A program made the translations under genes and the position numbers. DNA of 64,000 nt from Thermoanaerobaculia bacterium (GTDB lineage: Bacteria > Acidobacteriota > Thermoanaerobaculia > Multivoradales > UBA5704): the NCBI GenBank assembly GCA_044226625.1, contig JBGAGQ010000003.1, forward strand, positions 1 to 64,000, in the 5' to 3' direction. A model generated the notes under the pieces. The model worked only from the letters and a program-made list of their open reading frames with translations, was not told where the DNA came from and searched no databases. Below are positions 37,852 to 50,445 of this stretch, piece after piece. The stretch's first letter is position 1, and each line of letters begins with the position of its first letter.

Positions 37852-37880
37852 TTGACAATGAGTCTACATGTAGCTACATT
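37852..37880 (+). promoter_or_regulatory. Sigma70 promoter with overlapping palindromic operator for the TA operon (probably leaderless)
   Basis: TTGACA-17-TACATT, 7 bp before ATG; palindromes CTACATGTAG (37864-37873) and ATGTAGCTACAT (37868-37879). Confidence 0.75.
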
Positions 37881-37887
37881 GCCCGAC

Positions 37888-38196
37888 ATGAGAGACGTCG
37901 GGATCCGCGAATTGAAGGCGCAGCTGAGCCGCGTCGTGCGCGAAGTCGAGGACGGAGAGACCGTGATCGTCACCGATCGAGGGCGGCCGATTGCCGAGAT
38001 CCGGCCCGTGGACGTAGCCCCTCCGACCGAAGAGCATCCCGGCCTGCTGAAGATGGCGCGCGAAGGACGGCTCCTCCTCCCCCAGGTGCGCAACCATCCG
38101 GGCCTCTATTCGCCACCGCGCCGCCCCCTGGGACGTCCCCACCCGAGTATCCAGGAGCTGCTGGACGCCGGACGGCAGGACCGAGGGGAGGACTGA
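37888..38196 (+). CDS. Phd/YefM-family antitoxin
   Basis: VGIRELKAQLSRVVREVEDGETVIVTDRGRPIA. Confidence 0.88.
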   Translation: MRDVGIRELKAQLSRVVREVEDGETVIVTDRGRPIAEIRPVDVAPPTEEHPGLLKMAREGRLLLPQVRNHPGLYSPPRRPLGRPHPSIQELLDAGRQDRGED

Positions 38197-38199
38197 TCG

Positions 38200-38643
38200 A
38201 TGGACGCGCCGACCCTCTACGCTGAATCGAGCGCGGTCTTGAGCTTGCTGCTCGGCGAACCGGGAAGCGACCGGGTGGCCGACGCGCTCGGCCAGGCGGG
38301 CCGCGTCGTCGTCTCCGAACTCACGCTGGCGGAGACCCATCGCACGCTGCTCCGCGCGCGGGCCGTGGGCAAGTTGACCGACGAAGAGCTGGAGCAAGTC
38401 CGCGGCGACCTCGAGCGCGCCGGACTCGGCTGGTCGCTCCAACGGCTCGACGCCGAAACCTACCTGCGCCTCCGCCGCCCCTTCCCCGCGGAGCCGGTTC
38501 GCACGCTGGACGCCCTCCACCTCGCCGGAGCGCTCGCCGCGCGGCGCGAAGTCCCCGAGATCCGCCTGCTCAGCCTCGACGTCCGTATCCGGGACAACGC
38601 ACGCGCGTTGGGTTTCGACGTCGAGCCGGAAGAAGGAATGTAA
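38200..38643 (+). CDS. vapC: PIN-domain VapC toxin
   Basis: LYAESSAVL, SELTLAE, RTLDALHLA, SLD. Confidence 0.85.
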   Translation: MDAPTLYAESSAVLSLLLGEPGSDRVADALGQAGRVVVSELTLAETHRTLLRARAVGKLTDEELEQVRGDLERAGLGWSLQRLDAETYLRLRRPFPAEPVRTLDALHLAGALAARREVPEIRLLSLDVRIRDNARALGFDVEPEEGM

Positions 38644-39191: not shown

Positions 39192-41048
39192 CTACCATCC
39201 TTCGAGCTTCCTCCGGATCAGCTGTTCGCCCTTGTTGGGATCGGTCGCTTGGGCGTGCGTGATGCCGTGGCTCGCGAGAATGCGCAGCGCATCGGCGCGG
39301 TCGGGGTGGGGCGCGTGCACCGGGCTCGAAGCGGCCTGATACAGGTTCCGCGCGTGGAGCGCGCGCTCCTCACCGAGCCTTTGGCCCGCCGGGGCGTTCT
39401 TCTTCTGAAAATGGCGGTAGAGCTTGTAAGCCCCGAGGCCGAGGGCGGCGAGCGCGCCGGCTCCGGCGAGACCCCAACCGATCGGGGTGAACAGCGCCCC
39501 GGCGCCGAGCAGGCCCGCGAGCAGGGCTCCTCCTCCCAACGCTCCGATTCCCGCGCCGATGCCGCCCAGGATGTTGCGCTTGCGGCGTTTGGCCAGCTGC
39601 CCGCTCATGTGATCCGCCGCGGCGGTCATGTTCGCGCTCATCGGCGGCCCCGCGCGGACGGCGTCGATCTGCGTCTTGTGCTGATGGGCGCGATAGGCCC
39701 GATAGCCGGCGCGCCCCGCGACGATCGTCTGGACGCCCGCGCCGATGCCGGCCGAGGCGAGGCCGGTGGCGGCCGGCAAGATCGAGGTTCCGGCGTGGCC
39801 GACGGCGCTGATCGCGTTGCCCGCCTGCATCCCTTGGCTCGCTGCGTCGGCCAGATTCACGGTCGCATCCACGGCGAGGCGCTTGGCCGTGCTCCGCGTC
39901 TCGGCCTGGGCTCCGGTCTCGTTGGGCTGAGGCGAGAACGTGTCGCGTATCCCCCGGCCGAAGCCCCTCACGCCCCCCTCCTGGCCCATGTTGCGGAGGC
40001 CCTGGTACGTGGCCAGGAGGTCCGCGCCCCCCGAGGCGATGTTGAGACCCGCTCCGGCCGGCCCGGTGACGCCGCTCGCGGCGCTGGTGTAACTCGTGGG
40101 CGCGACCGCGGCGGGAGGGGTGACCAGGGAGTTCACGGCGCCCAGGCCGCCGATCACCCCGGTCTGCGTTCCAGGGGAGTTGATCGCGAGGAAGTTCTCC
40201 GCCCGCGTGCCGAGGGAGGGGGGAGCGTACGGGGGAAGAGGAGGCAAGCCGGCAGGGGCGGCCCACGCGGCGGCGGGTGCTCCGGGTGGGCCGCCGCCAC
40301 CACCCCCGGGTCCCGCGGGAGCCAAAACCGCGCCGGCCGCAGCGGGAGCGGCGCCGCCGCCGCCCAGCGCCGGGGCGAGCATCGCGGGCGGAGCCGGCAA
40401 CGCGGCCGCCACAGCACCCGCGCCGGGTGCCCCCCCTCCACCGCCCAGCGCCGGAGCCAGCATCGGGAGCGGAGCCGGCAACGCAGCCGGCACGGCGCCC
40501 GCGCCGGGTGCGCCCCCTCCACCGCCCAGCGCCGGAGCCAGCATCGCGGGCGGAGCCGGCAACGCGGCCGCCACAGCACCCGCGCCGGGTGCGCCCCCTC
40601 CACCGCCCAGAGCCGGAGCGAGCATCGCGGGCGGAGCCGGCAACGCGGCCGCCACAGCGCCCGCGCCGGGTGCGCCACCTACACCGCCCAGCGCCGGAGC
40701 CAGCATCGGGGGCGGAGCCGGCAACGCGGCCGGCACAGCGCCCGCGCCAGGAGCGCCACCTCCACCGCCCAGGGCCGGAGCGAGTATCGCGGGCGGAGCC
40801 GCCGGGGCCGGGAGCGCGGCCGGCACGGCGCCCGGCAGTTGGTCCATGTCGTCGTCGTGAGGCCTCGGTTTGCGCTGAATCGGCGCCGCTCCGTGGACGG
40901 CCAGATTTTCGAACCGGTGCCCAAATCGCGTAGCAGCCTCCAGAGCGATCGAGACGGATCGCGGCGCCTCGGACGGCGATTCGGATCCGACGGCGCCCGA
41001 GCCCTCGGTGCGGGCGCTCTCCGCCGGCCGCTGGATCGAAGCTCGCAT
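39192..41048 (-). CDS. GHRFENL-leader protein A: Ala/Pro/Gly repeats and hydrophobic C-terminal domain
   Basis: Start MRASIQRP chosen by alignment with paralog MRTHAQRP; RFGHRFENL...PIQRK; C-terminal GGGALLAGLLGAGALFTPIGWGLAGAG. Confidence 0.75.
   Translation of the reverse strand: MRASIQRPAESARTEGSGAVGSESPSEAPRSVSIALEAATRFGHRFENLAVHGAAPIQRKPRPHDDDMDQLPGAVPAALPAPAAPPAILAPALGGGGGAPGAGAVPAALPAPPPMLAPALGGVGGAPGAGAVAAALPAPPAMLAPALGGGGGAPGAGAVAAALPAPPAMLAPALGGGGGAPGAGAVPAALPAPLPMLAPALGGGGGAPGAGAVAAALPAPPAMLAPALGGGGAAPAAAGAVLAPAGPGGGGGGPPGAPAAAWAAPAGLPPLPPYAPPSLGTRAENFLAINSPGTQTGVIGGLGAVNSLVTPPAAVAPTSYTSAASGVTGPAGAGLNIASGGADLLATYQGLRNMGQEGGVRGFGRGIRDTFSPQPNETGAQAETRSTAKRLAVDATVNLADAASQGMQAGNAISAVGHAGTSILPAATGLASAGIGAGVQTIVAGRAGYRAYRAHQHKTQIDAVRAGPPMSANMTAAADHMSGQLAKRRKRNILGGIGAGIGALGGGALLAGLLGAGALFTPIGWGLAGAGALAALGLGAYKLYRHFQKKNAPAGQRLGEERALHARNLYQAASSPVHAPHPDRADALRILASHGITHAQATDPNKGEQLIRRKLEGW
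40360..40835 (-). repeat. About 6 x 81-bp coding repeat (APPAMLAPALGGGGGAPGAGAVAAALP)
   Basis: Read directly in protein and DNA. Confidence 0.85.
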
Positions 41049-41080
41049 AGGGACGCGACCCGGGGTCGGAAAACCGGCGA

Positions 41081-41266
41081 TCAGAGCGCGCCGGTCCCGC
41101 TCTCCGGGCCCGCGGGCTCCACTCCCTCGAACGCGGCCCGCTCCGGAGATCGAAAGAGCCACGGCCCGTCGCTCGAATCCAGAAAATCGTCTACGGAGAG
41201 ATCTTCCGAGGATTCGGCCACGGGCTCGGATGCCAAGGGACGGTCGAGGGGCTGCTCCGAGTCCAT
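41081..41266 (-). CDS. Small acidic 61-aa peptide, PatE-like precursor candidate
   Basis: Strong RBS GGAGGAGG; EDLSVDDFL and AFEGVEPA resemble cyanobactin RSI and AYDGVEPS. Confidence 0.55.
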   Translation of the reverse strand: MDSEQPLDRPLASEPVAESSEDLSVDDFLDSSDGPWLFRSPERAAFEGVEPAGPESGTGAL

Positions 41267-41362
41267 GGGACCTCCTCCCGCCGCAAGAGTTGTAGGCGAT
41301 GCTGAAGGCATCCTGACAGAGTCGCGACGCACCGACAAGCGCATTTCCTATTCAGGATCACG

Positions 41363-41387
41363 CCGCGGGCTCGGTGAGAGCCCGCGG
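41363..41387 (-). terminator. Stem-loop downstream of precursor gene 41408-41704
   Basis: CCGCGGGCTC-5 nt-GAGCCCGCGG. Confidence 0.55.
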
Positions 41388-41407
41388 GGGTTCCGCGGAA
41401 TCGAAGC

Positions 41408-41704
41408 TCAGCAACCGTAGCCGAAGCACTCCTTCGTGACCTGGATGCCGCCCACCGAGACCGAAACGCAAACTCCGGTGGGGAATCCCAGCGTGGTGCA
41501 AAGGTCGATGCAGGCTTGAGCCAGCGTGCCCGAGCCGGGAATCGGAACGGAGATGCATTCGTTCCCGACCACCGGGAGGTCGAGGCAGATCTGTCCGTTT
41601 TGCACCACGACGGACACGCACTCGGCGGGCGAGATCCCCGACGCCGCGAGGGCGTGGGCGGAGGCGGTCCGGTGGACCGGTGCGGAGAGTTGCGGGAGTT
41701 TCAT
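41408..41704 (-). CDS. Cys-rich RiPP precursor with cyanobactin-like leader
   Basis: RBS AAAGGGG; MKLPQLSAPVHR...SGISPA followed by an 8-Cys core. Confidence 0.75.
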   Translation of the reverse strand: MKLPQLSAPVHRTASAHALAASGISPAECVSVVVQNGQICLDLPVVGNECISVPIPGSGTLAQACIDLCTTLGFPTGVCVSVSVGGIQVTKECFGYGC

Positions 41705-41788
41705 CGGGAAGTCCCCTTTCGTCTCGGCGCCCGATCCGCGGGACCCGGCGCCGTTTCATGTCGCTCCGGAAGCGGAGCGCACGTTGTT

Positions 41789-43300
41789 TCACTCCGGCGG
41801 CTCGCGACGCGGAGGTCCCGGATCGTGCCCGGGCGCGTACGGCCGCACGGGTAGGTCGAGACCCGCGTCGCCCTCGAGCTTCGTGCCGCAACCGCAGATG
41901 CCGAGCGGGCCCTGCTCGAAGGCGTCAAGCCGCAATCGGTCGGCGATGTTCTTTTCGTTGATCGCGGCGGTGAAAAAGGCGCCGAGGCCGAGCGCGGCGC
42001 AGCTCCAATAGAACGTCTGGCTGAGATGGCCGGCGTCGAGCAGCAAGACCCGATACGCCTTCTTGTGCACCTGGTATTTCCAAAAGTTCCGGTAGAAGCG
42101 CGCGGCCAGCACGACCAGGACGTGGGCGGTTTGGAAATACGACTGCCCGGCGGTGAATTCGTTCGCCAACGCTTCGGCCTCGGCGAGGGTCAAACGTTCG
42201 ATCCGCTCCAGGCCATGGACACGGACGTCGTAGTGGTAGAGGCCCGGCGGGAGGCCCTGGACTCGCAACACGAGGGGATACGCCTCGATTGGATGGAGCC
42301 CGCCGCCCGAAGGGCTGGTCTTCTGGAGTGCGACGACTCCGTCGGCGACCTCGGCCACGCCCCGGCAGCCGAAGACGTGGCGCAACAGCGAGGACAGATC
42401 GGCCAGCGACATCGCGCCGTCGCGGTCGAAGACGCGCGTGGTCTTGCGCTCCGCCGGCCATCGAGACGCGATCCTCTCGTCTTCGACGAGGGGCAGCGGG
42501 ACGGCCTCGGCTCCCAGGACCGAAAGGAAGGGCGCCGGAGGCTTGCCATAGCGAGCCACCACCCGGTTGAGCCCCTCGCCTCCGTTCAAATAGGCGTCCC
42601 AACGGTCCGCGTCACCTTCCTGCAGCCCGACGTCGCCCCACACGCTCATGAAGTGATAGAGGGCGGCGTACGGCTCCCACCTCGACGCGGCGATCTCCTC
42701 GTCTCGCCTTCTCGCCGACGCGGCCTCCGGGACGTCGCTCGCGAGCAGGAGGCCTTTCTCGATCAGATGGTCGATCACCTCTTCGTCGAACCGCTCTTTC
42801 AGCCGGTCGACCTCGATCCAGCGCGTCGAGGGGACGCCCGCCAGGATCTCCAGCTCGGCCTCGCTGATCAGATGCTCGGTTTGAGCGAGGAGGTCGGCGG
42901 CCACGAGCTCGTTGCCGCGGAAGATCGAGATCTCGCCGCGCAACAGCTCGTCGACGCCGAGCGAGTAGCGGTCCCGCAGCCAGAGAAAACAGAGGTGATG
43001 CCGCTTGACCGTCTTTCGGAGTCCCGCGGAATTTCCTTTCGAATCGGGCGCGTCGCCGTTCGGCCGACGCTCGGCCGACGTCACCGCGGCGGCGTCCCGA
43101 GCGCCGAAGCCGAATCGGTGGAGACAGTCCGATTTCTCCGGCAGCCGCACCCGCGCGGGTAGCCGTTCCGGATCGAGCGCGACGTCGAGCCTCTCGAGAA
43201 GGGTCCGTGGATTCCCCTCGAGCTCCGCCCGGAACGCGTCGTCCGTGGCGAGCCGGTAGGCAAGATCCGAGGTGAGCTCCAAACGGGTTCGGCTCGGCAT
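41789..43300 (-). CDS. SagB/nitroreductase-type peptide maturation dehydrogenase with N-terminal NHLP-like segment
   Basis: RKTTRVF, KTSPSGGGLHPIEAY, GLYHY, RNFWKY, LDAGHLSQTFY; N-terminus LAYRLATDDAFRAELEGNPR. Confidence 0.85.
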   Translation of the reverse strand: MPSRTRLELTSDLAYRLATDDAFRAELEGNPRTLLERLDVALDPERLPARVRLPEKSDCLHRFGFGARDAAAVTSAERRPNGDAPDSKGNSAGLRKTVKRHHLCFLWLRDRYSLGVDELLRGEISIFRGNELVAADLLAQTEHLISEAELEILAGVPSTRWIEVDRLKERFDEEVIDHLIEKGLLLASDVPEAASARRRDEEIAASRWEPYAALYHFMSVWGDVGLQEGDADRWDAYLNGGEGLNRVVARYGKPPAPFLSVLGAEAVPLPLVEDERIASRWPAERKTTRVFDRDGAMSLADLSSLLRHVFGCRGVAEVADGVVALQKTSPSGGGLHPIEAYPLVLRVQGLPPGLYHYDVRVHGLERIERLTLAEAEALANEFTAGQSYFQTAHVLVVLAARFYRNFWKYQVHKKAYRVLLLDAGHLSQTFYWSCAALGLGAFFTAAINEKNIADRLRLDAFEQGPLGICGCGTKLEGDAGLDLPVRPYAPGHDPGPPRREPPE

Positions 43301-43303
43301 GGA

Positions 43304-45031
43304 TCAATCCTCCGGCGACCGGTTCGCCAGGATTCGAGCGAGCGGCTCGAGCTGGGTTTCGTAGCGGCGCCAGCGCCCGATCTCGTCCGTGTGCATGGCC
43401 GGGAACGCATCGCCCGCGGCGGCTTCGCGGCGGGCCTCCGCATCCGCCAGTCCGCAGAAGCTCTCGACTCGCGTCATCACCTCGCGCGGGTTCTCGACCA
43501 GCTCTTCGTAGCGAACCTCCATCACGGGCGTGGGGAGCACCTCCTGCCAATGGCGCATCAAACGGCAATAGGAGAGGAAATAGCGCCCCAGCTCTTCGAG
43601 ATCGAAGCTGAACGTCTGTCCCCGCGCGAAGTTGGTGCAGTAGCAGGCGAGGCACGCGTCCATGGTCCCCCGAACGCAATGGAGGATCGCGGCCCGGGGC
43701 AGGATGAGTTGGATCAAACCGAGGTGGAGGAAATTGCCCGGCAAGGTGTCCGTGAACCGTGCCGCGGGCCCCGCGATCGCCGTCGCCTGGGCGACGTACT
43801 CCTGGCCCAGCTCGCGCGCCTGGCGCCGGGTCATCCGTGCGACGCCATCCGGATAGGTCGCACCGAGGCGCGTTGGAAAAGCGGCGGCGATCTCGGGCAC
43901 GAAGTCCGGCTCGCCGCCCGCGTGGAGCGCAGGATGCCGCCGGAGCATGCGCTCCACGAGCGTCTTGCCGGTCCGGGGCATGCCGACGATGAAGATCGGG
44001 ACCGCCGACGAAAATCCGAAGTCGGAGCGCTCGGCAAACAAACTCCGGGGGAAGGCGGCGATCAGGCGGTCGTGAGCTTCCTCTTCTCGCGCGGCGTCGA
44101 ACGAGATCGACGACCTTCGGAGACGGTTGCCTTCCGCGAACGCTTCGAAAGCCGCCGCGTGATCTCCCAGATCGGCGTACGCCTTGCCCAGGGCGAACGA
44201 CAAGGCCGGCCGCTCTTCGGCCGCCTCAGGCATCCGATCGCGCAGGCGGACGAGCTCGGCGAGCGCCGGATCGCCGGGCTCGAACGTCTTCGCCAAGGCG
44301 AGGTTGTAACGCGCCTCCACGTAGCTCGGGGCCAGCTCGAGGGCTCGGGCGTAACTGGCCACGGCCCCGTCGACCTCGCCTTGCAGCTGTAAGGCGTTGC
44401 CGAGGTTGTTGTGCGCCTGAGCCAGCTTCGGATCGAGCGCCAGCGCCTGCCGGTAGCAGGCGATCGCCTCGGCCGTCCGGCCCCTCTCCATGAGCGCGAT
44501 GCCGAGATTGTTGCGCGCCGGCGCCGAGCTCGGCGCCAATTCGAGGGCCCGCCGAAAACTCTCTTCCGCATCCCGCGTCCGCCCCAGCCGGAGCAAGGCG
44601 CTCCCCTGTCCGTTGTGGGGCGCGCCGAGATCGGGCCGGAGCTCCGCCGCGCGACCGTACGCGGCGACCGCGCGATGGGGGTCGCCGATCGCCAGGCCGT
44701 GGTTCCCCAGGCAGAGGTGCGCCTCGAACGAGTCGGGATCGATCCGCAAGGCGGTCTCGTAGCACGCCAGGGCTTCATCGAACCGTCCTCGCGCCTCGAG
44801 GACCTTCCCCAGGTTGAGGTGGCCGAAGAGGAAATCGGGACGGATCGAAAGTAACTTGCGATAGAGACGTTCCGCCTCGTCGAGCCGGCCGGAATGGTGG
44901 TGGCGAATGGCTTCTTCGAACGTTCGCTTCGGGTCGGCGGCGCTCTCGAGCCCGTCCGCCGGCTCGATCCGCGACTCGGCCGAAAATTCATCCACGAATT
45001 CGCGTTGGGCTTCGCTCTGGACGGCGATCAT
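43304..45031 (-). CDS. TPR-repeat sulfotransferase
   Basis: Start MIAVQ overlaps the upstream stop (ATGA); TPRs; IFIVGMPRTGKTL, EVRYEELV. Confidence 0.85.
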   Translation of the reverse strand: MIAVQSEAQREFVDEFSAESRIEPADGLESAADPKRTFEEAIRHHHSGRLDEAERLYRKLLSIRPDFLFGHLNLGKVLEARGRFDEALACYETALRIDPDSFEAHLCLGNHGLAIGDPHRAVAAYGRAAELRPDLGAPHNGQGSALLRLGRTRDAEESFRRALELAPSSAPARNNLGIALMERGRTAEAIACYRQALALDPKLAQAHNNLGNALQLQGEVDGAVASYARALELAPSYVEARYNLALAKTFEPGDPALAELVRLRDRMPEAAEERPALSFALGKAYADLGDHAAAFEAFAEGNRLRRSSISFDAAREEEAHDRLIAAFPRSLFAERSDFGFSSAVPIFIVGMPRTGKTLVERMLRRHPALHAGGEPDFVPEIAAAFPTRLGATYPDGVARMTRRQARELGQEYVAQATAIAGPAARFTDTLPGNFLHLGLIQLILPRAAILHCVRGTMDACLACYCTNFARGQTFSFDLEELGRYFLSYCRLMRHWQEVLPTPVMEVRYEELVENPREVMTRVESFCGLADAEARREAAAGDAFPAMHTDEIGRWRRYETQLEPLARILANRSPED

Positions 45032-47145
45032 CGGGTCTCCCGCCCGAGCGCTCGCTTCAACGGCTCGAGGTGGGCCTCGTAACGGCGCCAACGCCCGACC
45101 GATCTCTCGTAGATCGGCTGGCGCACCTGAAGGTTGCTCGCGGTGCGGACCGGACGCTCGGTTCGGTGGAACGCGACGCATCGGTCGTCCCACGGCAGGC
45201 CGCAGAACGCGAGCAGCTTGCGGGTGATCTCCTCCTGGTTCGAGACCAGGTCCTCGTAGCGGACGTCGAGCGTCGGCGCCGGCAGTGCGCGCCGCCAGTG
45301 CGCCATCAGCCTCTCGTAGCTCCGGTGGTAGCTCCCCAACTCTTCGAGGTCGTAGGTGAACGGTTGGTTGTCGCCGGAAAACAGGATCGAGTAACAGGAC
45401 AGGCAGGTATCCAACGGATCCCGGAGGCAGTGGACGATGCGCGCCCCGGGCAGGGCGAGAGCGATCAGGCCCAGGTGGATGAAGTTCTCGGGCAGCTTGT
45501 TCGTGACGCGCCGGGCCGCGCCGTCGCGGGCGCGCAGCGTCTCGACATAGCGGCGTCCGGCGGCCGCCAGGGCGCGTTGCGGCGGAAGGCGCGGACCGTC
45601 GAGGTATCCCTCGTCGCGCCGTAGATCGGCGGCGATCCGACCGAGCGTGGGAAGCTCGCCCGCGCCATGGACCCCCGGGTGGCTGGCGAGGATCTGCTCG
45701 ACCAGGGTGGTTCCGGATCGCGGCATCCCCACGATGAAGATCGGCAGGTCCGACGGCTCTCCCCCGCCGAACCGCTCGGCCATCGCGGTGCGGCTCAAAT
45801 TCCTTTCGATTCGCAGCAGCGATTGCCGCCAGCGCCGAGCGCTGTAGTCGAGCCGCGCGCGCTTTCGCCGATTGCCGTCCGCCCAGAGGCCGAACGCCTC
45901 GTCCTCGCGGCCGGCCGCGTCGTATACCTTGCCGAGGGCGAACGAGAGGTACATCCGATCTTCGGACGAGGCGCGCTCGTGCCGCAGCAGCTCTTCCATC
46001 TTGGCGACCCGCGCGTCGCCGGGCGCCAAGCGCTGCACGTTGGCGAGATGGAAATAGGCCTTGGCGTTGCCGGGCGAGAGCTCGAGCGCCCGGCTCGCGC
46101 TCGCTTCCGCTTCGCGGAACCGGCCGAGGGCCGCCAAGGCAGTGCTCGCGTTCGCGTGCGGCTCGGGATAGTCCGGCCGCAGCCGGAGAGCCCGGCGAAA
46201 GCAGGCGAGCGCCTCGTCCACGCGGTCGAGCTCCAGCAGGGCGCAGCCGAGATTGTTGTGTCCTTCGGCGAGCCCGGGCTCCAAGCGCAACGCTTCCCGG
46301 TAGGAGGCGATGGCTTCGTCGAGTCGCTCCCGGTCCGCCAGCGCGGTCCCGAGGTTGTGGTGCGTCCGCCCGTCGTCGGGCCGGATGACGAGAGCCGCGT
46401 GGAAGCGCTCGATCGCCTCGTCGATTCGGCCCAGCTTGAGGAGCGCGCTGCCCAGATTGTCGAGCGCGTCGGCAGGGTGCGGGCTCCGCCTTGCGGCGTG
46501 TTCGAAATGGTGGACCGCGCGCTCCGTCGATCCCATCTCCAGAAGCAGGCAGCCGAGGTCGTAGTGCGCGGGCGCCGACTCGGGATCGATGCGGAGAGCG
46601 CGCTCGAACGCCCCGAGCGCCTCGTCGCGACGCCCCAGCGCTTGGCATGCCAACCCGAGGTTCACGTGCGCGGGCACGAAATCCGGCCGGATCGCCAACG
46701 CCCGCCGATAGCAGTCGACGGCGGCGGCGATCTCGCCGGAGCTCTTGAGGGCGTTGCCCAGGTTGAGATGCGCCTCCACGTACTCGGCGTCCCGCTCGAG
46801 AGCGCACCGGTAGCTTCGAATGGCCTCCGTGCGCCGGCCCGCGCTCTCGTAGGCCTTGCCGAGGTTGTAACGGAGGAGGGGCGCCTGAGGCCGAGACGAA
46901 ACCGCCTTTTCGAACAGCACCGTGGCCTCGCCGGAGTTGCCCCGCTGGGCGAGGAGCAGCCCCAGATACTGGAGCGCGTCCGCGTCGTCGGGACGCTCTC
47001 GCAAGACCCTGCGGTAGATCGCCTCGGCGTCCTCATGGCGTCCGGCCTTGTGAAGCTCGACGCCGGCCTCGATGGGGTCGTCGATTGGCGGTCGCGGCGC
47101 CAACGGCACGGCGGGCTCCCGAGGGATGTCTGTGGGGTCGATCAT
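45028..47145 (-). CDS. TPR-repeat sulfotransferase
   Basis: About 10 TPRs; IFIVGMPRSGTTLVEQIL, RDPLDTCLS, TASNLQVRQPIY. Confidence 0.9.
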   Translation of the reverse strand: MIDPTDIPREPAVPLAPRPPIDDPIEAGVELHKAGRHEDAEAIYRRVLRERPDDADALQYLGLLLAQRGNSGEATVLFEKAVSSRPQAPLLRYNLGKAYESAGRRTEAIRSYRCALERDAEYVEAHLNLGNALKSSGEIAAAVDCYRRALAIRPDFVPAHVNLGLACQALGRRDEALGAFERALRIDPESAPAHYDLGCLLLEMGSTERAVHHFEHAARRSPHPADALDNLGSALLKLGRIDEAIERFHAALVIRPDDGRTHHNLGTALADRERLDEAIASYREALRLEPGLAEGHNNLGCALLELDRVDEALACFRRALRLRPDYPEPHANASTALAALGRFREAEASASRALELSPGNAKAYFHLANVQRLAPGDARVAKMEELLRHERASSEDRMYLSFALGKVYDAAGREDEAFGLWADGNRRKRARLDYSARRWRQSLLRIERNLSRTAMAERFGGGEPSDLPIFIVGMPRSGTTLVEQILASHPGVHGAGELPTLGRIAADLRRDEGYLDGPRLPPQRALAAAGRRYVETLRARDGAARRVTNKLPENFIHLGLIALALPGARIVHCLRDPLDTCLSCYSILFSGDNQPFTYDLEELGSYHRSYERLMAHWRRALPAPTLDVRYEDLVSNQEEITRKLLAFCGLPWDDRCVAFHRTERPVRTASNLQVRQPIYERSVGRWRRYEAHLEPLKRALGRETR

Positions 47146-47174
47146 CGCGCGCTCCGGATCGGCCTCGGAGCGAG

Positions 47175-47205
47175 GGGTGGCCCGGACCGGTCGCCCGGGC
47201 CACCC
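47175..47205 (-). terminator. Stem-loop downstream of precursor gene 47227-47421 (no U-tract; read-through likely)
   Basis: GGGTGGCCCGG-9 nt-CCGGGCCACCC. Confidence 0.55.
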
Positions 47206-47226
47206 GCCGCCGAGACGGTCAACGAC

Positions 47227-47421
47227 CTAGTTGCAGGCGGGCCAGCCGAACGGGCAGGTGCAGGTCGAGCCGTCGTTGCAGCAGGTCGACAGGAAGGCGC
47301 AGCTGCACTTGGTCTGACCGCTCGAACAGGCCTGCGGCTCGATGCCGGTCCGGTTCTCGCCCTCGCGAACGGCGGCGAAACGGTTGCGGTGGACGGGTTC
47401 GGACTGAAGCGGGGTGTTCAT
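47227..47421 (-). CDS. Cys-rich RiPP precursor with cyanobactin-like leader
   Basis: RBS AAAGGAG; PLQSEPVHR...GIEPQ followed by an 8-Cys core. Confidence 0.8.
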   Translation of the reverse strand: MNTPLQSEPVHRNRFAAVREGENRTGIEPQACSSGQTKCSCAFLSTCCNDGSTCTCPFGWPACN

Positions 47422-47537
47422 ATCGAACTCCTTTGGATGTGTGCCCCGTCACGGGACGGCGGCACGGGGTTGCGATCGACGACGGGTGGAACGACGGCGG
47501 TTCGAAAGCAGTTATGCGGTTCTGCGACGGTGGGCGA

Positions 47538-49604
47538 TCAGTAGACGTCCCAATGCCGGACGGCGCCCACGGTGACCGGGATCACTTCGCTCACGTCGAC
47601 CGTGAATCGATAGACGTGGCGCGCCTGCTCCAGGCGCTTGGCCGGGTTGAAGAAGATCAGCTTGACGTCCCAGCAATCGGAGCCGGGGCGGCAGATCGGG
47701 CTCCGTTCGACGCCGATCCGGTCGAGCTTCAAACCGCCGTGCACCGCGTCTCGGTAGATGAACTCGAGTTGGAAGGCGTTCGTCGCGGCGAAGTTCATCG
47801 ACCTCTCCTGCGGCGTCAGGCCCAGGTTGCGGACCTCGTAATAGACCCGCTCGAGGAAGTTCTGAATCCCTTCCGACTTCCGCGCGTGCGCCGCCGCCGA
47901 ATCCTTTTCTTTCGGGACCTCTCCGGCGGCCGCCTTGACCAGCGCGGGCGTATGCCAGCTGTAGAGGCCGCGCACGTCGGGATAGAGCACGGGCACGATC
48001 TGTCCGTTGAGCAGACGCTTCGTGCCTCGAACGACGCCGGGCACGGACACGCGCTCGGCGCCTTCGGTCAGCTGCTCTCGCAGCGCGCGCCGCAGCCGCT
48101 CGTAGGTCGTGGCGGCGAACGGGCCGTTCGGCGCCACCGCATAGACGACCGTGGCATCGAGGCTGAGCGTCCAGGTGAGGCTCGCCGCCGCGGATGGGTC
48201 TTCGTCCAGATACGCCAGCAGCTCCCGCGGATCGTTCACGTTGCGATGGGTGAGCTGGATGAACTGGTCCCGCCTGGATTCCGTGCCGAAGTCGTACCCG
48301 AGCTGCCCCAGCACGTACGCCAGCACCGGGCTCGCGGATCCTCCGGATCCTCCCGCGCTGCCCGAGCCGCCGCAGCCGCAATCGGAGGCTTCGATGCCGC
48401 TCGCCGCGATGCCGGCCCCGCTTTCCGCTTCGACCTCGAATCCGAGCTCGGGGAGGTCCGCGAGCGCTTCGGCGGCGATCACGGCGTTCGCGATTCCTTG
48501 GGGATCCTCGACGCTCGACGCCTCGATCGCGGTCGATCCGCCACTCTCAACTTGCGCTTGGCTTGACATGTGTCCTTCCCTTTCCGTGGGTTGGTGGTTG
48601 ATATGAATGGCCATGGCCGTTCCGGTCTTTTGCGGCACCGGCAAGATGTCGATCGTGGGAGGAAGGTCGTGGGCATCGCTCCATGCCTCCCGCGCGGCGG
48701 CGAGGACTCCGAGCCCGGCGGTCAGGTGCCGGTAGGCCGCGGCGAGATCGAGCCGGCCGGCGAGCAGCCGCCGGCATTCCGTACCGCTCGAGACGTCGCA
48801 GGGCTCGGCGCCGCCGAGGAGCGCGGCGCGTACCCGGCGCGCGTCGGGCCTCTCGCCGCGGGCGAGCTGGAGGCTCATCAAGAGCGCCGCGAGGCCCGAG
48901 ACCACGGGCGTGGCGAAGCTGGTCCCCGTCTTCCTTGCGACTCCGCCCCCGGGTAACGCGCCGAGGATCTCCTCCCCGGGCGCGAGAATTCCTTGCTCGA
49001 GGTAGGCCTCGCCCCAGTTGCTGAACTCCAAGGGAGTCCCGGCCGCGGTCATCGCGCCGACCGCGAGCACCGACGGCACGGCGGCCGGAACGTGAACGCA
49101 GGCGCAGCCGTCGTTGCCCGCCGCGGCGACGATCAGGACGCCGTTCTCCCAACACCGCTCGATCGCCTGCGCCAGCAAAGGCTCGGCCTCGGCGCCCGGC
49201 GCGAGCTCGCCGCCGCTCACGTTGATCACGTGCGCGCCGTGGATCACGGCGAGGTTGATCGCCCGCGCGAGGTCGAGCTGCGAACAGGACAAAACGTTGC
49301 CTGGCCGCGGTGAATAGATGGGCACGATCAAACCGCGGCAGCCCGGCGCGATGCCCGGCACCGGGCTGCCGTGCCGGCCGAAGATCACGCTCGCGACATG
49401 GGTGCCGTGCCTCGACGCCGTATCGTCGCCCGCGGTGCCCGCGGTGCCCGAGGCCACGGTCTCGACCCGCGTGAGCCTCTCTTCCGAAAAGCAGGGATGG
49501 GAAAGATCGACCGGTCCGTCGAGAACGGCCACGCAGACCCGCGGATCTCCCATGGTCTCCGACCAGAGCGACTTCAACCGCGGCACCGCGACGTCGATGG
49601 CCAT
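47538..49604 (-). CDS. PatA/PatG-family cyanobactin maturation protease (S8 domain + PatG-type C-terminal DUFs)
   Basis: VAVLDGPVD, HGTHVAS, SQLDLARAI, GTSFATP; LGYDFGTESRRD, RNLGLTPQERSMNFAATNAFQ, SPICRPGSDCWDVKL, FTVDVSEVIPVTVG; RBS AAGGAG. Confidence 0.92.
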   Translation of the reverse strand: MAIDVAVPRLKSLWSETMGDPRVCVAVLDGPVDLSHPCFSEERLTRVETVASGTAGTAGDDTASRHGTHVASVIFGRHGSPVPGIAPGCRGLIVPIYSPRPGNVLSCSQLDLARAINLAVIHGAHVINVSGGELAPGAEAEPLLAQAIERCWENGVLIVAAAGNDGCACVHVPAAVPSVLAVGAMTAAGTPLEFSNWGEAYLEQGILAPGEEILGALPGGGVARKTGTSFATPVVSGLAALLMSLQLARGERPDARRVRAALLGGAEPCDVSSGTECRRLLAGRLDLAAAYRHLTAGLGVLAAAREAWSDAHDLPPTIDILPVPQKTGTAMAIHINHQPTEREGHMSSQAQVESGGSTAIEASSVEDPQGIANAVIAAEALADLPELGFEVEAESGAGIAASGIEASDCGCGGSGSAGGSGGSASPVLAYVLGQLGYDFGTESRRDQFIQLTHRNVNDPRELLAYLDEDPSAAASLTWTLSLDATVVYAVAPNGPFAATTYERLRRALREQLTEGAERVSVPGVVRGTKRLLNGQIVPVLYPDVRGLYSWHTPALVKAAAGEVPKEKDSAAAHARKSEGIQNFLERVYYEVRNLGLTPQERSMNFAATNAFQLEFIYRDAVHGGLKLDRIGVERSPICRPGSDCWDVKLIFFNPAKRLEQARHVYRFTVDVSEVIPVTVGAVRHWDVY

Positions 49605-49722
49605 TCGTCTCTCCTTCCAGGGTTCGGCCGGGCGACCGGCCGAACTTGCGTTTGTCTTCACTGAAAGGAAAGGTTAATGATCGATCGGCGGGCTGAAAAT
49701 CGGGGCCCTCTCTGATCTTCGG

Positions 49723-50445
49723 CTAGGGGAAAACCCGATCGTTCCCCTCCGGACGGGGCGGCTGCCGCTCCGTTTCGACCCACAACGTGGCGTGGCGTGC
49801 CAGGTCCGCGACGGAAGAGAGGTCGAGCTTGGACTTCAGATGCTCCAGATGGGTCTCGACCGTCTTGATGCTCAGATGGAGTTGTTGCGCGATGCGCCGC
49901 GTTCCGTGGCCCTCGCCCAGCAGACGGAAGACCTGCAACTGGCGGTCGCTGAGTTGCGCGAGGGGCGAGCCGGGCTCTCGAGGGTTTCCGCCGACGAACT
50001 GGCGGGCCAGTCGATTCGCCAGGGTGTCGCTCATGTAGACGTCGCCGCCGAGCACGTGGCGGATCGCGACCATCACCCGGTCGCAAAGCTGTTGTTTGGA
50101 AACGAAGCCCCGCGCGCCAGCCCGCAGCGAGCGCTCGCCGTAGATCGTCTCGGAATGCATCGAAAGCACGAGGACCGGAATCTTGGGATGACGCGCCGCC
50201 ATGGCTTTCACCAGCTCCAGACCGTCGTCGCCCCCTTCGAGCGCCAGGTCGACGATCAACAGGTCGGGCTTCTGCCGCTTGACGGCTTCGAGCGCGGCCT
50301 GGACTCCCCCGGCCTGGCCGGACACCATGAGGTCGGGCTCGTCGTCGATCAACGCGATCAAGCCGCGCCGCAAGAGCGGATGGTCTTCGACGACGAGGAT
50401 GGTCTTTCGTTCCTGAGCCAATCGTTCGGGTCGCTTCGCGGGCAT
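49723..50445 (-). CDS. NarL/LuxR-family response regulator
   Basis: VVEDHPLLRRG, IVDLAL, LSDRQLQVF, LSIKTVETH. Confidence 0.9.
   Translation of the reverse strand: MPAKRPERLAQERKTILVVEDHPLLRRGLIALIDDEPDLMVSGQAGGVQAALEAVKRQKPDLLIVDLALEGGDDGLELVKAMAARHPKIPVLVLSMHSETIYGERSLRAGARGFVSKQQLCDRVMVAIRHVLGGDVYMSDTLANRLARQFVGGNPREPGSPLAQLSDRQLQVFRLLGEGHGTRRIAQQLHLSIKTVETHLEHLKSKLDLSSVADLARHATLWVETERQPPRPEGNDRVFP

Follow-up and report, generated by a model that had tools for sequence, protein, structure and literature searches.

Leader sequences tie the enzymes that make peptides synthesized ribosomally and then modified post-translationally (RiPPs) to their own substrates, and chemists fuse leaders to such enzymes for combinatorial biosynthesis, with lacticin 481 synthetase and LynD reportedly among the enzymes engineered in this way. 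Here, we describe a natural fusion of this kind in a 64,000-nucleotide stretch of the genome of a Thermoanaerobaculia bacterium from the phylum Acidobacteriota (GCA_044226625.1, contig JBGAGQ010000003.1, positions 1 to 64,000), hereafter called the window. The gene in question encodes a SagB-type dehydrogenase that carries at its N-terminus a domain resembling the leaders of nitrile hydratase leader peptide (NHLP) precursors. In the engineered fusions, as set out in the cited part of PMC13003496, a flexible linker joins the leader to the N-terminus of its cognate enzyme, and an enzyme with its leader appended in cis is leader-independent and constitutively active. The protein described here shares this layout and differs in being natural and conserved in a small clade.

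The family context is a catalogued trio consisting of a small companion peptide (TIGR04509), a large cyclase/ATPase protein with tetratricopeptide repeats (TPRs; TIGR04510), and a putative peptide maturation dehydrogenase (TIGR04511, SagB_rel_DH_2). Like this trio, the fused enzyme scores above the TIGR04511 cut-off, has an N-terminal domain that is by sequence homologous to TIGR04509, and lacks a YcaO partner. Unlike the trio, it is one polypeptide, in which the spacer and tail of the peptide are replaced by a disordered linker. Its TIGR04509-like part is a domain of a 503-amino-acid protein without a tail rather than a small stand-alone protein, no separate TIGR04509-type peptide gene accompanies it, and no TIGR04510-type cyclase is encoded at the locus or elsewhere in the genome. 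Its neighbors are instead genes for a PatA-type protease, TPR-containing sulfotransferases, and Cys-rich peptides.

Cluster OS3 of Pseudomonas sp. Os17 likewise combines a small helical NHLP-clan protein (Os1348, PDB 6LK7) with a SagB-type dehydrogenase (Os1351), with no SagC or SagD, according to the part of the report cited here (PMC7726476); there, however, the two are encoded by separate genes, together with a GNAT protein and a peptidase, and Os1351, of 650 amino acids, is a member of a different subfamily. ThcOx, BmdC, and McbC, which are SagB-type flavin mononucleotide (FMN) dehydrogenases that oxidize azolines, have a domain like the RiPP recognition element (RRE) followed by an oxidase of the nitroreductase fold, an order that is likely also that of the fused enzyme, and their Lys-Tyr pair aligns with that of the fused protein. 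They oxidize azolines supplied by a YcaO cyclodehydratase or a nonribosomal peptide synthetase, whereas no such partner is encoded in the window; sequence identity is about 20 to 23%, and none of the three has the leader-like domain. Borosins, as far as the consulted descriptions go, are natural single chains of a RiPP enzyme, an N-methyltransferase, and precursor-derived sequence, but in them the core is kept as a substrate in cis at the C-terminus of the enzyme, whereas here the N-terminus bears the leader alone and nothing is left of the core-like tail. Of the cyanobactin pathway the window holds the PatA-type protease only: it has no YcaO heterocyclase, and the open reading frames (ORFs) scanned in it included no further subtilase bearing a macrocyclase signature.

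The fusion is real, rare, and old

Among the 120 homologs listed, four (P0002 to P0005; 496 to 619 amino acids, 44 to 50% identity, 96 to 97% coverage), all of them metagenomic, share the N-terminal domain, and the remaining 115 are about 345 to 486 amino acids long and begin where residue ~98 of the fused protein aligns. A profile built from all five fused sequences gave 687 matches at E ≤ 1e-30 in a library of 1.84 billion representatives; full-length fused forms make up four of the best 150 of these, at about 820 bits, and the next match scored 482 bits. A quick maximum likelihood tree inferred from the enzyme domain alone (70 rows) grouped the five in one clade, with a Shimodaira-Hasegawa-like approximate likelihood ratio test (SH-aLRT) support of 99 and terminal branches of 0.39 to 0.88 changes per site. 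Mean pairwise identity within the five is 0.42 in the leader, 0.42 in the RRE-like domain, 0.60 in the oxidase, and 0.18 in the linker, which is of low complexity and 22 to 34 amino acids long. By this comparison, the leader domain, as conserved as the RRE-like domain, appears to be under selection.

Independent support for the reading frame came from a 215-nucleotide contig of a different study, which covers residues 49 to 118 with eight substitutions and no gaps; by our reading, those listed for it introduce no stop, are silent in the last leader codons (residues 62 and 63), and alter linker residues 69 and 71. The read check that the original prediction had proposed for a lost stop near 43.05 kb thus ended in favor of a frame that stays open over the junction. 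The probable source sample (run X1) matches the region without differences and is not independent, a small gap at 42825-42889 between its two contigs is uninformative, and runs X3 and X7 contributed just short or diverged pieces. A sequencing artefact or a stop lost in one assembly was rejected in view of the five-member clade, the open frame in the second study, and the conservation of the leader. We conclude that the fusion is real, rare, old, and selectively maintained, and the view that it is a natural leader-enzyme fusion has held up across the five proteins of the clade.

The source genome (133 contigs, 97.9% complete, 5.5% contamination) contains a single TIGR04511 gene. The fused gene is an accessory gene in its lineage, since none of seven genomes of the same genus carries it. 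Within the phylum, 42 of 401 genomes have a TIGR04509 match, a tally that includes one weak match in genome G152, on which nothing else here depends, and no other fused form was found among them. Long frames around weak TIGR04509 matches (L012, L017, L019, and others) were considered as further candidates and rejected, because tblastn found no dehydrogenase in them. One of the five fused proteins, P0002 (619 amino acids), has an extra N-terminal extension of about 125 residues with AraC-type helix-turn-helix domains (PF12833, PF00165) ahead of the leader domain. Either three genes may be fused in this case, or the gene caller may have joined an upstream gene to the fused one.

The usual state of the family was surveyed in 161 loci, made up of the window, 80 of 131 relatives from species genomes, and 80 of 193 relatives from Joint Genome Institute (JGI) metagenomes, which were classed with two hidden Markov models (HMMs). 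The window is the one fused locus. The peptide lies directly upstream of the enzyme on the same strand in 48 loci, six of which have two copies, and elsewhere, mostly divergent and 130 to 400 bp distant, in 54; no peptide was detectable in 41, and 17 were cut off upstream. A separate peptide gene is thus present in 102 of the 161 loci, in agreement with the expectation that precursor and enzyme are normally encoded apart. In five loci (L034, L044, L047, L053, L203), peptide and enzyme share one frame and are parted by stop codons alone, a state that, judged from the sequences, is one step from fusion; L044 is the cultured strain Caballeronia calidae LMG 29321, and L203 is a genome from the order of the window. 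The large ORF upstream is a cyclase-type protein in all four loci sampled for it, one a TIGR04510 protein at 856 bits and three similar to the TOMM (thiazole/oxazole-modified microcin) kinase/cyclase family at scores below its cut-off.

The stand-alone peptides, about 85 to 140 amino acids long, begin with a helical N-domain that is conserved, continue in a spacer that varies, and in most cases end in a hydrophobic, aromatic tail. Tail types appear to vary among lineages, since the peptides at L140:2021-2317 and L036:1693-1986 have Pro/Thr/Glu-rich repeats instead of the hydrophobic tail and end in a common short motif. A frame at L032:9193-9963, in a metagenome-assembled genome of the Haliangiales and immediately upstream of the dehydrogenase gene, has two tandem TIGR04509-like domains with a hydrophobic stretch behind each and looks like a duplicated companion peptide. 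By a simple count, a hydrophobic segment near the C-terminus (at least 6 of 8 residues from FWYLIVM) is present in 25 of 39 stand-alone peptides, and the best value in the fused protein is 3 of 8; the tail typical of the stand-alone peptides has been lost in the fusion.

The leader-like domain itself matched only NHLP-clan models in NCBIfam when the whole protein was searched, namely, TIGR04509 (E 1.7e-4), NF038399 (E 4.8e-4), and TIGR03793 (E 0.07). The N-terminus by itself reached 25 bits with TIGR04509 (E 1.5e-5), under the cut-off of 34, and E 1.6e-5 with NF038399, the Os1348 family model; TIGR03793, which describes proteusin and TOMM precursor leaders, scored 13 bits against a cut-off of 50.9 in the search with the whole protein, and the link to that family lies at the level of the clan only. 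An HMM made solely from the five fused N-termini matched 125 of the 22,229 open frames of the 161 loci at E ≤ 1e-3; these are small ORFs beside canonical dehydrogenases, the best of them stand-alone peptides reaching about 1e-15. In a 40-row alignment of the fused protein's N-terminus with stand-alone peptides, 38 rows match TIGR04509 and 35 match the Os1348 family model. The profile of this alignment found the nitrile hydratase alpha subunit (E 5e-7), the NHLP proteusin precursor 8tb1 (E 1.8e-3), and 6lk7 (E 0.16) in the PDB, and all of its signature positions are kept in the window (R24, D20, F23, P31, P48, L53, P54). The source genome holds no second TIGR04509-like sequence, its sole match being the N-terminus of the enzyme.

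The likeness of the leader domain to the TIGR04509 companion peptides exceeds chance and, on these comparisons, points to homology. The assignment of the first ~65 amino acids as NHLP-leader-like in the original prediction is borne out by the clan matches and by the stand-alone peptides that the fused-N-terminus HMM recovered. The domain search proposed along with it had a divided outcome: all three N-terminal matches belong to the NHLP clan and the reciprocal HMM supports homology, but all three are under the curated cut-offs. The idea of an enzyme from another RiPP class needs refinement, as the leader is not foreign to the enzyme and corresponds to TIGR04509, the TIGR04511 family's own companion peptide. 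By these assignments, the fusion joins genes that are otherwise neighbors, TIGR04509 and TIGR04511. In an AlphaFold2 (AF2) model, for which the leader domain was covered by just five sequences, this domain consists of a strand (residues 6 to 9) and four helices (11 to 19, 21 to 29, 31 to 37, 56 to 63), with predicted local distance difference test (pLDDT) values of 74 to 94, or 74 to 96 when a second model, of residues 1 to 230, is included.

The enzyme body and a proposed role of the tethered leader

Residues 98 to 474 match TIGR04511 with 330.4 bits (cut-off 240), residues 299 to 472 match the SagB domain TIGR03605 with 126.7 bits (cut-off 78.4), and the sole Pfam domain is the nitroreductase domain PF00881 at residues 284 to 472 (E 1.6e-14). 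The AF2 model of the whole protein has a pLDDT of 87.6 and a predicted template-modeling score (pTM) of 0.85, with residues 69 to 92 below 50, and a model of residues 1 to 230 agrees with it (pLDDT 85.7, pTM 0.73). Its best structural match is the cyanobactin oxidase ThcOx (Z 26.4, root-mean-square deviation 2.9 over 321 residues, model residues 95 to 476 on chain residues 114 to 469), followed by BmdC (Z 20), and AlbAB is among the matches at Z 14.8; ThcOx and BmdC are described in the cited parts of PMC8795117 and PMC6395948 as an RRE-like domain plus an oxidase. In a wide structure search (VIA) with the shorter model, the seven top rows, MibB, TigE, TbtB, ThcOx, MadB, NisB, and MccB, were all RRE regions of RiPP enzymes, matched to model residues 94 to 213, and McbB, PbtF, BmdC, TbiB1, and PqqD followed lower down. 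The Z scores were 7.7 for MibB, 6.5 for TigE, 6.4 for TbtB, 5.7 for ThcOx, 5.5 for NisB, 5.4 for MccB, 4.7 for the PbtF RRE, and 4.6 for BmdC, and they spanned just 3.2 to 7.7 overall. Residues 97 to 190 are likely an RRE-like domain according to these models. Across 107 family sequences, K408 never varies and the conservation of Y409 is 90% or more; a catalytic role of this Lys-Tyr pair (K201/Y202) is known from McbC, as reported in the cited part of PMC6395948.

Measured against a SagB-type azoline dehydrogenase, the protein has the SagB domain and the Lys-Tyr pair, and the cluster lacks the YcaO cyclodehydratase. The absence of a YcaO partner, singled out in the original prediction, holds for the 64-kb window but is no peculiarity: a tblastn search with the genome's own YcaO found nothing in the 160 related loci (1.75 Mb), and of five host genomes checked, three lack a YcaO altogether. 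The YcaO-less state is the rule for the TIGR04511 family.

On the same strand lie, from upstream to downstream, the genes for a LuxR-type response regulator, a PAS histidine kinase, the PatA-type protease, a 64-amino-acid ORF (peptide A), two TPR-sulfotransferases, the fused protein, and a 98-amino-acid ORF (peptide B). The operon is tightly spaced. The best PDB match of the protease is the N-terminal cyanobactin protease 4h6w (360 bits, versus 191 bits for the PatG macrocyclase 4aks). Over their first ~34 residues, peptides A and B are identical at 13 of 34 positions (BLASTP E 2e-4, a single comparison), and by hand count each has eight Cys residues behind a G-I-x-P stretch, which may resemble a PatA recognition site. 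Their short leaders are not NHLP-like. Peptide B has one homolog, P0122, with 52% identity and all eight Cys residues kept, and no usable match in the Protein Atlas. By their adjacency, the two peptides would be the best candidate substrates of the fused enzyme.

The reading that we favor is a natural leader in cis. The tethered leader domain would rest on the body of the enzyme that carries it, probably at the RRE-like domain, and would hold the enzyme permanently in the leader-bound state, so that no NHLP leader would be needed on the substrate. Other peptides could then be substrates for an alpha,beta-dehydrogenation by the enzyme; the likeliest are the two 8-Cys peptides, which might also be processed by the PatA-type protease and possibly by the two TPR-sulfotransferases. 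The models suggest that the leader domain packs against the enzyme body, given its high confidence for a domain covered by five sequences and the pTM values. A complex prediction from two copies of residues 98 to 503 and one of residues 1 to 70, with separate alignments, scored 0.32 (runs 0.33, 0.32, and 0.15; best control 0.00), with at least 47% contact agreement and a partner pLDDT of at least 67; of 157 solved complexes, 116 attain the mark used for this score, as do 2 of 215 mismatched pairs, whereas at values of 0.60 or less it is attained by only 18 of the 157 solved complexes and by both passing mismatches. Activation of the enzyme by the fused leader would follow by analogy with the engineered fusions, and the dehydrogenation chemistry by analogy of fold, cyclodipeptide oxidases of the same fold being described in the cited part of a preprint as dehydrogenating without a heterocycle (bioRxiv 10.1101/2023.09.25.559410).

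Whether the enzyme, by holding a leader in cis, can dispense with an NHLP leader on its substrate seems to us evenly poised. To the full proposal we assign a probability of roughly one in four; it holds that the core was discarded and that a permanently activated, leader-independent dehydrogenase works in a hybrid pathway with a cyanobactin-type protease and two TPR-sulfotransferases in tailoring two unrelated 8-Cys peptides. Several points weigh against it. The activity of TIGR04511 enzymes and the role of TIGR04509 as their substrate seem to be assumptions, as a literature search, of incomplete coverage and supplements aside, found no paper on TIGR04509, TIGR04510, or TIGR04511. The N-terminus is under the curated cut-off of every NHLP-clan model, and Foldseek with the model of residues 1 to 230 found nothing for it at E ≤ 1e-3, with the proteusin precursor 8tb1 at rank 50 (probability 0.41). 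The docking of the leader on the enzyme has the weak support of model confidence. With no cyclodehydratase in the operon there is no azoline to oxidize, and the chemistry is therefore a guess. The link of the enzyme to peptides A and B is one of adjacency; a homolog search with peptide A returned only itself, and the sole homolog of peptide B comes from a JGI contig, with none of the 80 JGI loci (of 193 relatives) fused.

Among other explanations, the one that survives best is that TIGR04509 is a small folded accessory subunit of the dehydrogenase and not its substrate, in which case the fusion would have joined two subunits and left the targets of the enzyme unchanged. Os1348 offers a precedent in the part of PMC7726476 cited here: this NHLP-clan protein forms a six-helix dimer with a stable fold, its gene accompanies that of a SagB-type dehydrogenase but no SagC or SagD gene, and deletion of the associated dehydrogenase gave no mass shift. 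In the fused clade, too, it is the folded domain that was kept under selection and the tail that was discarded, and the aligned peptides, 35 rows in 40, match the Os1348 family model. The stand-alone peptides, however, are built like RiPP precursors, with a conserved N-domain followed by a hypervariable spacer and tail, and the two or three peptide copies per enzyme in some loci, together with the tandem copy in L032, suit substrates better than stoichiometric subunits. We regard this explanation as unlikely but deserving to be kept in view. Accessory subunit and leader in cis alike have the domain bind the enzyme, and they differ only over the canonical system.

The leader-like domain could also be a handle for the TPR domains of the neighboring sulfotransferases and assemble a multi-enzyme complex, with the TPR region of TIGR04510 proteins perhaps binding the peptide in the same way. 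Canonical cassettes pair the peptide with the large cyclase/ATPase/TPR protein in the four sampled cases, and here the cyclase is absent and two TPR proteins lie directly upstream, with start and stop codons that overlap or nearly touch. But their similarity to TIGR04510 is generic: no protein of the genome exceeds the TIGR04510 cut-off of 400 bits (the best match, through TPRs only, has 41 bits), the TPR similarity scores 39 to 49 bits, and many other TPR families score higher. A role as recruitment adaptor is improbable on this evidence. Still less probable is that the fused protein serves as its own precursor and that its linker or N-terminus is modified and released. Enzyme-precursor fusions do exist naturally in borosins, in the descriptions consulted, and the operon contains a protease gene; yet in place of the core there is a stretch of low complexity and varying length that is not conserved (identity 0.18), and the hydrophobic tail typical of the family is gone. 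A neutral relic or artefact, in which the stop between in-frame neighbors was lost or misassembled and the extension has no function, is largely refuted, for although many relatives have in-frame genes one or two stops apart that one substitution would fuse, the five proteins stand on long branches in one clade, the leader keeps its signature residues and is as conserved as the RRE-like domain, the same frame is open in the second study's contig, and the clean removal of the tail exceeds mere stop loss.

Layout of the gene and its surroundings

The open frame of the fused gene starts one codon past the stop of the preceding gene, and its G+C content at third codon positions (GC3), 0.84, resembles that of the neighboring genes (Table 1). 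Direct reading of the sequence found no ATG, GTG, or TTG around residue ~98, where canonical enzymes begin, and the enzyme part is therefore not made without the N-terminal extension. The ATG of sulfotransferase 2 overlaps the stop of sulfotransferase 1 (ATGA), and its own stop lies 3 nucleotides before the ATG of the fused gene. In a scan of positions 41000 to 50200 for promoters and terminators, no promoter-like site was found and terminator-like sites occurred at chance level.

Table 1. Coordinates of the fused gene, its parts, and the neighboring genes in the window
Feature	Coordinates	Strand	Remarks
Whole fused gene	41789..43300	-	503 aa, ATG start (ORF list); leader-like domain, linker, RRE-like domain, FMN oxidase domain
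Shine-Dalgarno-like GGAGGA	43308..43313	-	7 nt upstream of the ATG at 43300, overlapping the end of the upstream sulfotransferase gene (direct reading)
Leader-like domain, residues 1-66 (homologous part about 6-66)	43103..43300	-	NHLP-clan by sequence; predicted short strand, then helices
Linker, residues 67-96	43013..43102	-	Predicted disordered, unconserved; replaces the peptide's spacer and hydrophobic tail
RRE-like domain (likely), residues 97-190	42731..43012	-	Modeled as strand-strand-strand-helix-helix-helix
Helical connector between RRE-like and oxidase domains, residues 191-283	42452..42730	-	Model secondary structure; inside the TIGR04511 match
Nitroreductase-fold FMN oxidase domain (SagB/McbC/ThcOx type), residues 284-475	41876..42451	-	PF00881, TIGR03605; PDB matches 3eo7, ThcOx, McbC, BmdC
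K408-Y409 Lys-Tyr pair	42074..42079	-	phmmer alignment with ThcOx and McbC (K201/Y202 in McbC)
PatA-type cyanobactin leader protease with C-terminal PatG_D and PatG_C	47538..49661	-	TIGR03895, 678 bits (cut-off 421)
Peptide A, 64-aa Cys-rich small ORF	47227..47421	-	Candidate substrate; paralog of peptide B in first ~34 residues
TPR-repeat sulfotransferase 1	45028..47145	-	Pfam TPR families; Sulfotransfer_3 E 2.4e-50
TPR-repeat sulfotransferase 2	43304..45031	-	Sulfotransfer_3 E 2.8e-37
Peptide B, 98-aa Cys-rich small ORF	41408..41704	-	84 nt downstream of the fused gene; GC3 0.83; candidate substrate

The only YcaO of the genome lies on another contig (C5), where it is paired with TfuA. It was considered as a missing partner of the fused enzyme and rejected, as it belongs to its own cluster with TfuA and a kinase/cyclase-like protein. 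Besides the YcaO (185 bits with TIGR00702), that cluster (L201:8593-17637) holds a protein related to TfuA, two short ORFs (79 and 88 amino acids) without a family match, a protein resembling the TOMM kinase/cyclases (611 bits against a cut-off of 706), and a TPR-bearing Ser/Thr kinase. By its gene content it looks like a thioamide-type RiPP-like system.

Several other features of the window may be recorded. Just downstream of the cluster lies a 656-amino-acid Ala/Gly/Pro-rich ORF (39192-41162, minus strand) without a Pfam match; an 81-bp unit is repeated 5.5 times at 40360-40801 with 91% match, and long ORFs are open on both strands over this repeat. Between the gene for pyruvate dehydrogenase E1 and the cluster there is a pair consisting of a Phd/YefM antitoxin and a PIN-domain toxin (37864-38643, plus strand). 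A 606-amino-acid ORF at 53655-55475 (minus strand) has only a weak match to Cornifin, a Pro-rich repeat family, and adjoins a 318-amino-acid ORF without a family match.

Meaning of the fusion for RiPP enzymes

The enzyme family, the peptide family, and their pairing were already catalogued; new is the fused form, without tail or cyclase, in an operon with a protease, sulfotransferases, and Cys-rich peptides. A literature search, of incomplete coverage and leaving supplements aside, found no paper on a natural leader-only fusion to a RiPP enzyme. Should the leader in cis prove correct, the fused protein would match in nature what has been engineered for combinatorial RiPP biosynthesis: evolution would use the same leader-fusion trick as chemists, and a ready-made, possibly leader-independent peptide dehydrogenase would be at hand. 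The fusion would then also act as a Rosetta stone for the binding of TIGR04509 leaders to the RRE-like domains of TIGR04511 enzymes. If it merely links subunits, it would still argue that the NHLP-like domain does more than deliver its tail. For the widespread TIGR04509/TIGR04511 pairs, the fusion provides a first concrete and testable handle on how they work, namely, on what portion of the peptide is held by the enzyme and what portion is dispensable.

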